Assembly (NCBI GenBank): GCA_951406725.2
Contig: OX597820.1
Coordinates: 96,100,001-96,164,000 of the forward strand
DNA length: 64,000 bases
Direction: 5' to 3'
DNA from: Octopus vulgaris
Taxonomy: Eukaryota
Shown here: one piece after another, positions 1 through 49,960 of the stretch
Layout of the letters: each line of letters begins with the position of its first letter
Numbering within the stretch: the stretch's first letter is position 1
Program-made: the position numbers and the translations under genes
The notes under the pieces: model-generated
Told to the model about the DNA's origin: nothing
What the model saw: only the letters and a program-made list of their open reading frames with translations
Database searches by the model: none

Positions 1-1740
1 AAGTACCTTAACTGGAAGCTGAGTATGGGTTAAGAGGGAGAGGTGCAATGATGTTTCCTTGATATAAGTAGTGCTTGTGTTTTTATGAGTCGACAATAAC
101 ATGTCCTATTTGTTGTTACCCTCGAGGTCTCTGTTCGTGCAACAGCAGTAGTAGTAATAACATATAAGCGCAGATAGTAATGTTCGCTTTATTCATCTAA
201 ATTTCTTTGAAGAAAATTAACCACACTGAAGTTGTCGATTATTCATTTAGATAAATATCGAGTTGTAAATAATGAATTCAGGTAGATCGATACACAGACA
301 GACTATTCAATTGCAATATTACTGTTCTTGATTCATGTAGGTAAAAATGAAGAATTAACAATAAATGAATAAATAAATATATTTTGCTGATAGACGAACA
401 GAATTTACTTTAAGCTGTAGTTTCAGTAAGCTATAACAACGAAAAGTGGCAGCCTTCTATTTTATTTCAGATTAAAAGTACATTTCGCTGATTTATTTCA
501 TTTGTGTCATTTGCTCAATTAAATTTTGTATATAGAAATACGTTTCAAATGTAGCTAGGGTGTGCGAAACATAAGTTTCGCTTACTAGAAACGGTTCGCT
601 TTTGTTTTCTTTTGTGTGTAATCAATAAACCGTCATACTGCTATTATACTTGTTCAAAAGACAATGAACCTACACAAATGAAGAAAGACATTCCAAACTT
701 AATAGACAAGTTAAATATAACACATACACAAAGACATAGGCGCGCCCAACCCCGCACGCATGCATATATGTATCGGTGATATTTGAACATTTCAATATAT
801 CATTTTCTACAGCTGTTTCAATAACTCTTACCAAACATTTGATAGGCAGACAAACTGATAGATAAATAGATAGATAGATAGATAGATAGATAGATAGATA
901 TATATATAGACATATAAACATACACTCACAGACATGTATGTGTGTGTGTGGCTCCCATGTAAGCATCGGTCATCTTATCTTTCTATCTCTCCGTTGTAGC
1001 TGGAACAAGGAAGACGTGTTCTGTTTTTTCTCCTGTCCTAGCTTAATTTACACGTTCGCCACAACAACCTTGTTTAGGCTTAGCAGCACTTCCAGTTTAT
1101 TTTCACTATCCTGTTTGTGTTACCAATTTTGACTCTCCGCAAAATTCCAAATTTTATTTCATTTGTTTTACGGTAGCAACTGTTTTATCGAAAGCGTATA
1201 TTGTTGTTAAATACTTGAAATATGAGACTAGAAAAACAGCCAACAACTGATGAAAGGTTGTTCTTTATGTTAACTGTTTTGTTTTGGATTTGTGGCTTTC
1301 GTTGGTCGAAAGAATAGTTCAAGTTACATGCACTCGTGCGTCATACTTTTTTGTTCTACACGTTCTGTACCCACATATGCATATATATATATATATATAT
1401 ACACATACAGATGTAAGTACATATACGTATGTATAAATGCATATATATATATATATATATATATATATACATTATTTATAATATTATATGATTGAATACC
1501 ACGCATCCTCTTCCAAGTAAGATTTATCTTACTTGGATAATATATATATATATATATATATATATATATATATATATATATATATATATATATATATATA
1601 TATATATATATATATATATATATACATATATTTATATTGATGTATTTGGGATGGTCATGTTTCTAGTTTAACAATGAAAGCACACGCAAATATACTTGGA
1701 GATCATATGCTTCAGCTTTATTTTATATTAATTGTATTTC

Positions 1741-1785
1741 GGCCAGAGATTTTTCGTCACACTTCTGTGACCTCATCAGCAGTCC
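1741..1785 (-). ncRNA. Hammerhead ribozyme, minimal type I (family A)
   Basis: Minus strand: CTGATGA-G-GTCAC agaagt GTGAC-GAAA-aatc-TC-TGGCC; stem I weak. Confidence 0.6.
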
Positions 1786-2341
1786 TTTGCTTTTCCCTTC
1801 TTTTTTTGTATCTCTCCTTACTAACAAACTGCCATTTTATATTCCTGTTATATGTGTCTTTATTTGCACATGTGTATATGCCTGTGTGTGTCTTTATTTG
1901 TGCATGCGCACATCTCTGTATGTGTCTATGTTTAGTAAGTGTGTGCGTGGGAATGTGTATGGTATCTGCATTATCAGTATCCCCTGTTTATTCACGATCG
2001 TTTAATTTGCTTTTATTTATTTTATTCATTCGTTTTTATCTACTTATTTTACATTTCTTTATTTTTTTCGTATTAATTTCACTTAATTTATATTATTTTG
2101 TTTATGTTTATAATTATTTCATTCCATTTATTTACTTGTGTATTGTAATAGTTTCATATTATTAGTTTATGGGGATCTTATTCTGCCATAGGTTGTGATG
2201 TGTTCGGTTTGTGTGCTAGTGTTCCATTCTAGTTTGCTATTTAGGCTAGGTTTATCTTCTATTATGTATGTAGCTTTTGTAATTTGTCTAAGCGTTGGCA
2301 GGTCGTTAGTAAGGTGACATACAAAAAAAAAGAAAGCAAGG

Positions 2342-2385
2342 GGCTACTGATGAGGTCACAGAAGGGTAACGAAAGGACTCTGGCC
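2342..2385 (+). ncRNA. Hammerhead ribozyme, minimal type I (family A)
   Basis: GGCTA-CTGATGA-GGTCAC agaagg GTAAC-GAAA-ggac-TC-TGGCC; stem I GGCTA/TGGCC; predicted cut after 2380. Confidence 0.7.
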
Positions 2386-2803
2386 GAAATAGCACAATTA
2401 ATATAAAATAAAGCTGAAGCAAATGAACACCAAATATATATTGCGTATGTTTTTGTTGGCTAAACTGGCAACATAACCATCCCCAAATACATATATATAT
2501 ATGTGTGTGTGTGTGTGTGTGTGTGTGTGTCTGTGTGTGATTCAAATGAGCATTCAATTCAAATAAAGAAATAAAATTAATGGACAAGTCGGAAGAAAAG
2601 CAGATAGAGAAAAGTCCAAATAAAGAAAGAAATCGCCAACACCACGTCTGTAGTTACATTGCTATATATATATATGTCTGAAGAATGTTATCAATTTTTT
2701 TCTTACAATGACATAGTTTAGAATCCAAATAAAGAAAGAAATCGCCAACACCACGTCTATTTTCTATATATTCAACCCCGTACTTTCACAAACCAACTTT
2801 CTC

Positions 2804-46777: not shown

Positions 46778-47817
46778 CAAACTGATACAAATAGCGGCAA
46801 AACACGAGCAAAACAAAAAACTGTTCTCAGTATTTAAGGAAGCTGACAAATACAAACAAGAAATCATACTACCTAACAAATATGAAGAAGAAGAAGAAGA
46901 AGAAGAAGAAGAAGAAGAAGAAGAAGAAGAAGAAGAAGAAGAAGAAGAAGAAGAAGAAGAAGAAACAACAAAAGCTATAAAACAAATAAAATCCAAACTA
47001 AAACTAGAACAGCAACGGACCATGATAAAACGATGGCAAGAAAAGCCCCTTCATGGCAAATACTGGACTAAAATAAATGCAAGACGAATAGACAAAGAAA
47101 TAACCCAGCAACGGTTGAGAAGCTCAGGACTCAAATCAGAGACAGAGGGATTTTTAATTGCAGCACAAGACCAAAGCCTCCCCACCAGAAATTACCAAAA
47201 ACATATAATGAAAAGTAACTGCAGAATATGTGGAGATGGACAAGAAACAATAAATCATATTATCTCTGGCTGCCCAGTCCTAGTTAAGAAGGAATATATT
47301 CACAGACACGAATAACAACAGAAAAAAGATGATATAGGCACACACCAGAAAAGGTCACAGAAAACGAGAAAGCAACCATACTCTGGGATATGCCAATACA
47401 CACAGATATAGGCCACATATAGTTCATGAAGATCATGAAGAAAAAATACTTTCTAATTGATGTATGAATACCAGCAGATGACAACGTTCTCTAAAAGAAA
47501 TGGAGAAACTTTCAAAATACAAGGACCTAGAAATAGAGATAACTCGAATGTGGAATCTAAAAACAGAAACAATTCCTATCATAGTAGGTGCATTAGGTAT
47601 GATAAAAAATATTCAGACAAATACATAGCAAAAACACCGGGACTTACATATATAACATACAAAAAATTGCACTACTTGGCACTGCACACATCCTACGCAG
47701 AACACTTTCAATACAATAACCATCAGAGCATCACAACAAACCACAGCACATACCCAAGGCACACAGAGCTGCGCTCGGTAGTGAAGTGAAAGCTCTCTAT
47801 GAAAATAAAATTACTGA
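46778..47817 (+). mobile_element. R4/Dong-clade 3' fragment (CCHC plus restriction-like endonuclease region) inserted in (AAT)n
   Basis: WQEKPLHGKY, ETEGFLIAAQDQSL, CRICGDGQETINHIISGC, ATILWDMPI, IVGALG; (TAA)n on both sides. Confidence 0.9.
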
Positions 47818-48007
47818 ATAATAATAATAATAATAATAATAATAATAATAATAATAATAATAATAATAATAATAATAATAATAATAATAATAATAATAAA
47901 AATAATAATAACAATAATAATAATAATAATAATAACAACAACAACAACAACAACAACAACATCAAATATAACTTTGGAATGAGAACCAACGTTAAAAATG
48001 TCCCCAA

Positions 48008-48053
48008 GACACCTGATGAAGGCTAGAGGGTATATCAGCCGAAACTTTGTGTT
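48008..48053 (+). ncRNA. Hammerhead ribozyme (family D)
   Basis: GACAC-CTGATGA-aGGCT agagggtatatc AGCC-GAAAC-TTT-GTGTT. Confidence 0.75.
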
Positions 48054-49960
48054 AACAGCAAACAAGATGAAGACAAATATCCATCAAATATAAATAGTGT
48101 AAATAATGTGCATACTTTGAACCATTTCAAAAAATCTCTCAAGATATCATAAAATGTAATTCACAAAATCTCTCTATATATCAATCGCCTAAAACTTAGT
48201 CCTTCCTTCTTGATCCGCCTGAAGAGTGCTACCATCTTCCTGGACCATGTTTTTAAAGAATTGTTATAGATAAGATGAAAGTATTCAAGCTCTTTTAAAT
48301 GGCTGTCCCTTTGCCATACAATACTTAATCCGATTTGCCTCAGTAGTAATACGTTACTTAATATCATCCTTTACAATCGTGAATCCTTGAATATTTAATC
48401 TGTACTTTCTTTTCTCTACTTTCCATGTCTTTAGTTTTTCAGTTGCCATTGATGTCAACGATTTATTTTTCTCAACTCTTACTGTAATGTATTGACATCA
48501 TAATCTAACCTTATATCCACAATTTTTAGCAGCTTTCGTCTTGTTTTTACAACATTCTTTACTCTTTGCACTCCTCCGACAAGATACGCAGCTGTACATA
48601 TCAGTCTTTGGTGTCTTATGTAAAAGATAAAGTGCCATATTGACCTCAACTGTTTCACTTTCCAATATTTCTCTGCCAACGGAGAGAAGATAGGAAAGGT
48701 CTAAGGTTTCTTAATGCTTATACAAATTCCCTGAGCTTTTCCACAATTATTGTCATCTCTTCACCACCCATGATTTTTTTTATAGACATCACAATCCCTT
48801 TCCTCTCTATCGTTAAATTCGTCAGTCTCTGTCACTCTGTTCTCCATTTAATTAATTATTACTCTCATTAATATTATATTAGTATCATCGTCGCGGTCAT
48901 CATCATCATTTGATAATGATGATGATGATGATGATGATGCCATTTAAAAGCGGTCGTAAGTTGGGTTTTAAAAAATCTTTTTATTCTATGTTGTTGCTGG
49001 TCAGTTCCGTTTTCTTCTTTTTCTATTTTTTTTTTTTTTTGCCTTTGGCAGAGATGTATTAATTTTTGCTGCAACACGTCATTTCTTTTAAACATCGCAT
49101 TTAAATTTTCAAGAACAGACTGAAATGAAGAAATCAGTGCCTAGAACAGCAATCCTGATGCTATCTTCCCAGTTAAACAATCAGTATACCGAGGAATCAT
49201 CATCACCAATACAACTGTTACGGGTGGCAGCGATATCAAAATCAGCATCAACAGCATCAACAGCATCAACAGCAACAACAATAGCAAAGAAAATAAAAGA
49301 ATGTACGCTGACAGTGATGCCATCACTATCGCCATCACCCTACTTAAATTATTATGGGTACAACAGTAGCGATGGTAACAACAACAACACAGGAAGCGAT
49401 AAGGAGAAAATAATTTTTAAAATCCAACTGCCACAGCAAAATATCTACCAATACTACCAACACTATCACCACCAGTCATCAATACTAGACAGAAAACTGG
49501 ATTAAACAATGGAAGAAAATGTGGTTCGTTTGCAATCGCCACCACGTTATCCTACATCACACTTGAAAGCGCAGAGCAGACACTTGACCTCTATCACTGT
49601 TGCATTGACCTCATCAAAATATTTCTTTCAGTGAATCGGGTTGCATTATGAGTAATTCCCGAGAAAGTTGATTGTCCAGGCCCATTTCCAATCAGTGGTT
49701 ATGCGCAGTAAAGTGATATAAATGCTCCTACTCTATTTGCCATATATTTCACAATGGCGACAACAGCTACAGCTGTAGCAGAAATAGAATAAATGCGAAA
49801 TGTGGCAACAACAGCACTAGTTATAAAATATATGTTCAATGTTAACGAGAAAGGAGTAGTTTTGAGGTTCATAGAGAACTCTGCTAAGTGGGTGGAGAAA
49901 CAGAAGCAGCACAGTTCAATTTCCCTCACTCTATCAATCATTTCTTAGTCGTAATTGAAC

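Follow-up and report, generated by a model that had tools for sequence, protein, structure and literature searches.

Head-to-head inverted insertions with hammerhead motifs in Octopus vulgaris DNA suggest priming from both ends of the broken target

Insertions of Penelope-like elements (PLEs) have been described as occurring most frequently in a head-to-head arrangement, for which self-priming was proposed (Arkhipova et al. 2013, PMC3846280), and as carrying an inverted 5'-truncated copy together with a tail that is frequently confined to one end (Craig et al. 2021, PMC8557442), an account in which the way the inverted pseudo-long terminal repeat (pLTR) form arises is called undefined. Dual hammerhead ribozyme (HHR) motifs 100-700 bp apart on opposite strands were also noted before (Cervera and De la Pena 2014, PMC4209133), and twin and dual priming in L1 yield the same geometry (PMC2837659). 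For one PLE studied in vitro, the protein cuts and extends both target strands, and reverse transcription initiates at either of two sites bounding a 30-40 nt tail (PMC11167929). Here we describe seven inverted HHR-bearing insertions in a 64-kb stretch of Octopus vulgaris DNA (contig OX597820.1, positions 96,100,001 to 96,164,000; hereafter the window), which is AT-rich animal sequence of 30-40% GC with many microsatellites.

Polarity and anatomy of the seven insertions

A first-pass annotation of the window had claimed that seven inverted HHR insertions share one polarity, with 5' ends joined and ribozymes facing outward. The shared polarity was borne out. Inverted, 5'-truncated arms align head-to-head at 7/7 of the annotated intervals, left arms being antisense and right arms sense to a type I HHR motif, with identities of 179/217, 164/197, 253/327, 185/191, 421/427, 124/143 and 182/208 for sites 1-7 in order, and no tail-to-tail partner was found in the window for any HHR-bearing arm (19 HHR-like positions tested). 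Every left arm has its HHR core on the minus strand, and the right arms, where they retain a core, have it on the plus strand. The outward-facing ribozymes were not found on every arm: the right arm of site 2 ends ahead of the GAAAC half of the HHR and that of site 6 begins within stem II without the CUGAAGA core, so each of these sites has one whole ribozyme, on the left arm only. All seven insertions are real but are not seven separate cases, since sites 3 and 7 are of the same family and the set therefore represents six families; in a coin-flip test the polarity gave p=0.016 for 7/7 sites and p=0.031 for 6/6 families. The head-to-head observation is confirmed for the window. The polarity itself is already published for PLEs, of which the window copies appear to be new family members. 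The features are as follows.

1640..2295, minus strand: site 1 left arm; HHR core at 1779; adjoins an (AT)n run
2296..2492, plus strand: site 1 right arm; HHR eroded in helix III and stem I, with its core at 2347
4400..4738, minus strand: site 2 left arm; HHR of the long-stem-II form, its core at 4551 having one mismatch; outer limit not fixed
4784..5008, plus strand: site 2 right arm; damaged 5' HHR half only; 45-nt spacer to the left arm
19265..19277, no strand: site 3 left target-site duplication (TSD), 13 nt; second copy at 19989-20001
19276..19633, minus strand: site 3 left arm, untailed; tRNA-like head with A-/B-box-like motifs at 19546-19633, (AAT)n, HHR at 19323-19381
19634..19988, plus strand: site 3 right arm, beginning at the B box (microhomology of at most 4 nt); eroded HHR; 34-nt tail at 19955-19988
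26200..26369, minus strand: site 4 left arm; HHR core at 26342; inside (AT)n
26371..26630, plus strand: site 4 right arm; HHR core at 26398; loop-less central palindrome
37972..38413, minus strand: site 5 left arm, covering 442 nt of the 488-nt monomer; its HHR is intact, with a long stem II and the core at 38304
38414..38423, plus strand: site 5 junction, a 10-nt insert templated by the element sense strand
38424..39227, plus strand: site 5 right side, 1.65 tandem monomers of period 488; HHR cores at 38518 and 39005
39244..40049, minus strand: site 6 left arm; whole HHR with long stem II, core at 39399; 664 nt of upstream family sequence
40050..40191, plus strand: site 6 right arm, starting inside HHR stem II; junction seen in sequencing runs X1 and X2
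46356..46366, no strand: site 7 left TSD, 10/11 match; second copy at 48115-48125
46371..46654, minus strand: site 7 left arm, tailed; comprises an HHR (46457-46515), an (AAT)n run and, of the tRNA-like head, the 3' portion; 2-nt overlap with the right arm
46653..48114, plus strand: site 7 right arm, without full tail; HHR at 48002-48060; split by the next feature
46779..47820, plus strand: later insertion in site 7, a broken 3' fragment of a non-LTR retrotransposon (long interspersed nuclear element, LINE) within (AAT)n; zf-RVT at E=1e-4, below the Pfam cut-off

The later LINE fragment, which we take to be R4/Dong-like, makes up most of the apparent spacer of site 7 within its (AAT)n run. Site 5, annotated as an inverted pair at 37972-38846, is such a pair but extends to 39227 with a third, direct copy. 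At site 1, 461 nt of A-rich upstream sequence probably belongs to the same element, and at site 4 about 85 extra nt ahead of the right (AT)n appear tail-like. The arms of sites 4 and 5 are ~97-99% identical; across the sites, arm divergence reaches ~20%. No open reading frame is linked to any of the seven copies within the 64-kb window.

Core motifs of type I or minimal HHRs are present in the terminal repeats at all seven sites, several of them eroded. They resemble the minimal type I HHRs of PLEs (PMC4209133) in the CUGANGA/GAAA core, the extra base ahead of stem II and the tiny palindromic helix III, and differ from those in that sites 2, 5 and 6 carry stem II inserts of 55-65 nt and most window copies are eroded. 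A first descriptor missed HHRs with long stem II, and a second, strict base-pairing descriptor (0-1 background matches in each of three shuffles) missed eroded ones and was passed only by 4551(-), 38304(-), 38518(+) and 39005(+). A model made from 28 HHRs outside the window, the stems of which covary, matched 46457-46515, 19323-19381, 48002-48060 and a solo motif at 11220-11270 with E<0.01. Local Rfam scans at sites 3, 5/6 and 7 gave no hammerhead match, and the 150 matches listed, out of 200, from an Rfam scan of the whole window were all spurious hairpin or microsatellite matches. A further HHR family lies next to (AT)n runs as single arms without inverted partner, at 11220-11360 (+), 22960-23145 (-), 32936-33130 (+) and 62950-63035, and additional solo HHR-like motifs are at 34113 (+) and 63714 (-).

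The ends of the insertions also resemble those of endonuclease-containing (EN+) PLEs. The same tail occurs on opposite arms in the two members of one family, the right arm of site 3, where it is 34 nt long, and the left arm of site 7. TSDs bound sites 3 and 7, and (AT)n is the target at sites 1, 4 and 5; a TSD search at sites 2 and 6 found none. The insertions are like the published EN+ PLE insertions with inverted pLTR (PMC3846280, PMC8557442) in their mostly head-to-head inverted 5'-truncated copy at the 5' end, palindromic junctions, a tail of 30-40 nt at one end only, TSDs, microsatellite targets and, at site 5, two direct copies with one inverted copy. The annotation's statement that inverted 5'-truncated copies are known from PLE insertions agrees with PMC8557442.

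That the pairs are assembly or library chimeras or chance neighbours is hardly credible. Fold-back chimeras are a known artefact, and one outside locus considered below (L098) may be such a chimera. Against this stand the arm divergence of up to ~20%, the TSDs at sites 3 and 7, the later LINE insertion in one arm and the site 6 junction, which was recovered in contigs of two runs from different studies (X1 and X2) and is therefore no assembly artefact. Among the 15 joints listed from other runs, 3/3 orientable opposite-strand joints of the site 6 family were head-to-head, one being the window's own junction, and the opposite-strand joints 39376/39503 and 38925/39056 gave no orientation; the junctions of sites 4 and 5 were not among these 15 (11 more exist).

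Family F1 and other loci outside the window

A scan of metagenome contigs for the HHR motif yielded at least 119 loci, of which 23 were dropped as GC-rich or long-spaced and 96 AT-rich loci were kept; four unrelated loci on viral contigs were not used. All counts for the family F1 and the other families are among the matches listed, without shared downstream flanks among the 96. F1, with 39 listed loci, is preceded by a frame whose closest counterparts in the Atlas are GIY-YIG clusters (score 0.99, with GIY-YIG found on 17-28% of members), and by this frame F1 is a PLE family. Searches of the upstream frame against Pfam, NCBIfam and PDB gave no match.

The 3' ends of F1 fall at two sharp positions 34 nt apart, an inner, untailed end (A) and an outer, tailed end (B). 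An inverted arm was detected by BLAST upstream in 22/39 loci and downstream in 0/39. Among the loci without an upstream arm, 11/17 had less than 10 nt of upstream DNA; inversion was the commonest outcome, in 22/28 loci having upstream DNA. Where both ends could be classed, 17/17 loci combined A with B and had one tailed arm each (11 B|A, 6 A|B), and 16 of these 17 had a TSD score of 7-15, while random flanks scored at least 8 in 6/500. The other families gave 8 head-to-head and 0 tail-to-tail cases among 57 listed loci, and a self-only count across the 96 loci gave 23 head-to-head, 2 tail-to-tail candidates and 71 with neither. One of the candidates, L067, may be a separate inverted repeat past the element. 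The inner ends of 14 short F1 arms lie at +14 to +53 from the HHR start, with the predicted cut site at about +34, in tailed and untailed arms alike; selection for one intact HHR may contribute to this clustering.

In another reading both orientations arise and tail-to-tail pairs are lost through selection or instability, for example because a ribozyme made before the antisense arm could cut host transcripts. Transcription of a head-to-head pair always meets the antisense arm first, and this arm is predicted to base-pair with the HHR arm; L098 carries a tail-to-tail-like piece. Both are as such loss would have it. The very young copies at sites 4 and 5 are nevertheless head-to-head as well, and the single TSD around both arms together with the A+B rule indicates that pairs arise in one event, which leaves loss after insertion very improbable.

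Probable priming from both broken ends

The results suggest two priming events, one per tail boundary, which would account for the polarity and the tight centres as well as for the one-tail rule and the TSD. In the origin that we consider probable, though well short of certain, both broken target ends each start copying PLE RNA, rather than one cDNA folding back. The reverse transcriptase (RT)/GIY-YIG protein of PLEs would insert truncated copies from pLTR or retrozyme-type RNAs, each freed 3'-OH priming its own cDNA, one at the inner site A without tail and the other at the outer site B with the tail. Both cDNAs would extend toward the RNA 5' end and stop, a shared stop point giving a loop-less palindrome; the joining of their 3' ends would involve little microhomology or leave a short templated insert, and the gaps, once filled, would give the TSD. 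The template may be one or two RNA molecules. Since both element 3' ends would be fixed to the target, head-to-head geometry would be obligatory, and the polarity would reflect the insertion process and not ribozyme function. While polarity, end asymmetry and TSDs are seen directly, we infer the two primers, the end joining and, for the window families, the PLE protein as agent. A shared insertion mechanism behind the polarity, as the annotation had supposed, is in this sense supported for PLEs. A published two-ended priming model for PLE inverted arms was not found in a literature search lacking most subscription journals.

The annotation had offered either cDNA fold-back or priming from both ends of the break, of which the second fits every case and simple fold-back fails on non-nested arms. 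When a target-primed cDNA folds back it has no template but its own sequence, so that arms neither of which contains the other exclude fold-back as the general route. Such arms were found in 11/17 end-classed F1 loci, in L061 and L024 (two other families, each with a short tailed and a long untailed arm), and at sites 3 and 5. At site 3 the untailed left arm reaches further 5' and the tail is on the inner-shorter right arm; at site 5 the 3' end of the right side is 106 nt from that of the left arm in monomer coordinates, and neither side is contained in the other. A simple snap-back as sole route, one target-primed cDNA folding and being copied back, fits the nested F1 loci, the extent of sites 4 and 7 and the microhomology at L006. 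It cannot add sequence absent from the first cDNA, however, and offers no reason for the copied arm always ending at site A; as the only mechanism it is contradicted by the non-nested, TSD-bounded copies and is to be thought highly unlikely.

A hairpin self-primed off the target is a stronger competitor, yet still an unlikely one. A tail-bearing cDNA or antisense RNA would fold back and extend, and the endonuclease would cut asymmetrically, remove one tail and integrate the product. Self-priming was proposed in PMC3846280 and the tail was credited to EN-mediated resolution in PMC8557442, and a hairpin intermediate accounts for the polarity, the palindromic centres and the single tail per insertion. 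Even non-nested arms are possible by this route if the long arm loses its tail afterwards, and the templated inserts at site 5 and the outside locus L109 fit it. The tail boundaries are, however, direct RT start sites on cleaved target DNA in vitro (PMC11167929), and the junctions also speak against folding. Among 20 measured F1 junctions, microhomology was 1-2 nt in 6 and 6 nt in 1, and 1 was blunt, the rest having extra letters or being blurred by substitutions; this junction check, of the kind that the annotation had called for, came from a noisy script (about half of the 20 blurred, 2/22 without anchor, random mean 0.64). Fold-back to a site 70-300 nt away should require more pairing than the short microhomology at clean junctions. 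The centres of sites 4 and 7 and of L116 have loops of 0-2 nt, which are too tight for snap-back and sterically poor for a hairpin intermediate. Priming from both broken ends departs from the published EN+ PLE accounts of self-priming and EN resolution in that non-nested A+B arms point to two priming events. It is like L1 twin or dual priming (PMC2837659) in that both target ends prime, inverted 5'-joined fragments lie in one TSD and junction microhomology is little. In L1 the position at which the second primer anneals varies within the element and overlap between the fragments is unusual, whereas here the starts A and B are fixed and the arms overlap.

Several points weigh against priming from both ends. 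Because the arms overlap in element coordinates, unlike in classic L1 twin priming, strand displacement or a second RNA is assumed. The strongest numbers come from the PLE family of another animal and not from this genome, and arm lengths there are biased since the outside loci were located through one intact HHR. Site 3 is the one window site that combines a TSD with a tail on the inner-shorter arm, the tail being confirmed by a family mate; the tails at sites 4 and 6 are putative, as would be any at sites 1 and 2, and the spacers of sites 1 and 6 yielded no open PLE frame. Nested arms in 6/17 F1 loci are compatible with fold-back, and some snap-back does occur, as indicated by the 6-nt microhomology on a natural hairpin at L006 and the templated inserts at L109 and site 5. 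Both arms of L078 appear to end at one position, and the inverted piece of L055 lacks a 3' end. Finally, the 418-nt locus L098 contains a perfect palindrome of ~50 bp that mirrors 36 nt of flanking DNA and 15 nt of the PLE tail in tail-to-tail orientation, which may be a real event or a library chimera; the 15-nt piece is below the BLAST threshold, was noticed by eye and is counted as an exception.

In a broader and more doubtful form of the proposal, PLE integration would be routinely two-ended, a protein dimer using the two cut strands to prime a cDNA at each tail boundary and the second cDNA often stopping near the hammerhead, with a tRNA-headed Pol III short interspersed nuclear element (SINE) and the 488-nt retrozyme riding along. 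Most insertions would then be head-to-head with one tail because the dimer primes one cDNA per tail boundary. In any case the one-tail rule and the non-nested arms provide a simple genomic argument for two-end priming and against plain fold-back, a useful addition that the existing in vitro PAc system could test directly.

The tRNA-headed unit, the 488-nt monomer and other features

Sites 3 and 7 have a common architecture of tRNA-like head with A/B-box motifs, (AAT)n, HHR and a PLE-type 3' end with tail, a composite that occurs twice in the 64 kb. A search with patterns for A and B boxes spaced as in a tRNA, a feature of tRNA-derived SINEs, gave a single window match at 19572(-); ARAGORN called no tRNA in the window. 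The head is duplicated in both arms and is therefore part of the copied RNA. On the sense strand, runs of four T, which would block Pol III read-through to the 3' end, number 0 in the four arms of sites 3 and 7 versus 4-8 in arms of four other families, with 0 also in the site 1 arm. Copies of the composite outside the window were not found, genome contig scans gave 0 for two family patterns, and no PLE-mobilised tRNA SINE was found in a literature search short of most subscription papers. The unit is like the Schistosoma SINE-like elements Sm-alpha/Sj-alpha (PMC6765202) in being non-autonomous and combining an HHR with a Pol III-type promoter, and differs from these in the tailed PLE-type 3' end, the inverted arms, the position of the head upstream of (AAT)n and its dispersal in this window. 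The 3' end of the head (19546-19633 (-), 46620-46700) resembles the one that the LINE fragment has at 47820, and each of the two leads into (AAT)n. The head may originally have been a LINE-dependent SINE and have come to drive a PLE end module at a later stage.

At site 5, tandem non-coding monomers of period 488 each contain a complete type I HHR, and two of these pass the strict descriptor. The summed depth of this family is near 10^6 versus ~50 for single contigs, a value that is not a copy number. The monomer is a putative retrozyme-like unit of 488 nt from a very high-copy family, comparable to animal non-LTR retrozymes (PMC7761336; bioRxiv 10.64898/2026.07.22.740005), which are tandem non-coding monomers with one type I HHR each, very high copy and presumed PLE mobilisation. 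It differs from the retrozymes quoted there (~150-300 nt) in its length of 488 nt and its PLE-like inverted arm. That the retrozyme-like monomer and the tRNA-headed unit have the same insertion signature supports mobilisation of such RNAs by PLE proteins.

At six sites the two arms are predicted to fold onto each other through 129-421 base pairs, including uninterrupted helices of 28-181 bp. Since transcription of either strand of a head-to-head insertion would yield the antisense arm first, masking of the HHR by that arm is plausible; the annotation's claim that read-through transcripts would form long double-stranded RNA masking the HHR holds only as a fold prediction for these six sites. 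The site 5 monomer family (38741-39227) is also covered by contigs of run X15, possibly an RNA run. In X15, A>G/T>C changes exceed G>A/C>T changes (21:12 vs 36:49 in X1, Fisher p=0.04); depth and multicopy mapping confound this excess, which was rejected as evidence of editing.

Other inverted pairs in the window were set aside. The related elements of ~870 nt at 17135-17994 and 23501-24374 have terminal inverted repeats of 200 nt, ends of DNA-transposon type, and are presumably mariner-like. An inverted pair at 14032-14176 and oppositely placed common SINE-like repeats were likewise set aside. An inverted pair of a 136-nt repeat at 5707-5842 and 6438-6568 (77% alike) has (AT)n flanking each copy; no HHR was found in 5707-6568, so its polarity is undefined and it was also set aside. 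The region 7440-9440 is more GC-rich and, read on the minus strand, resembles a retrotransposon in its 5' part.

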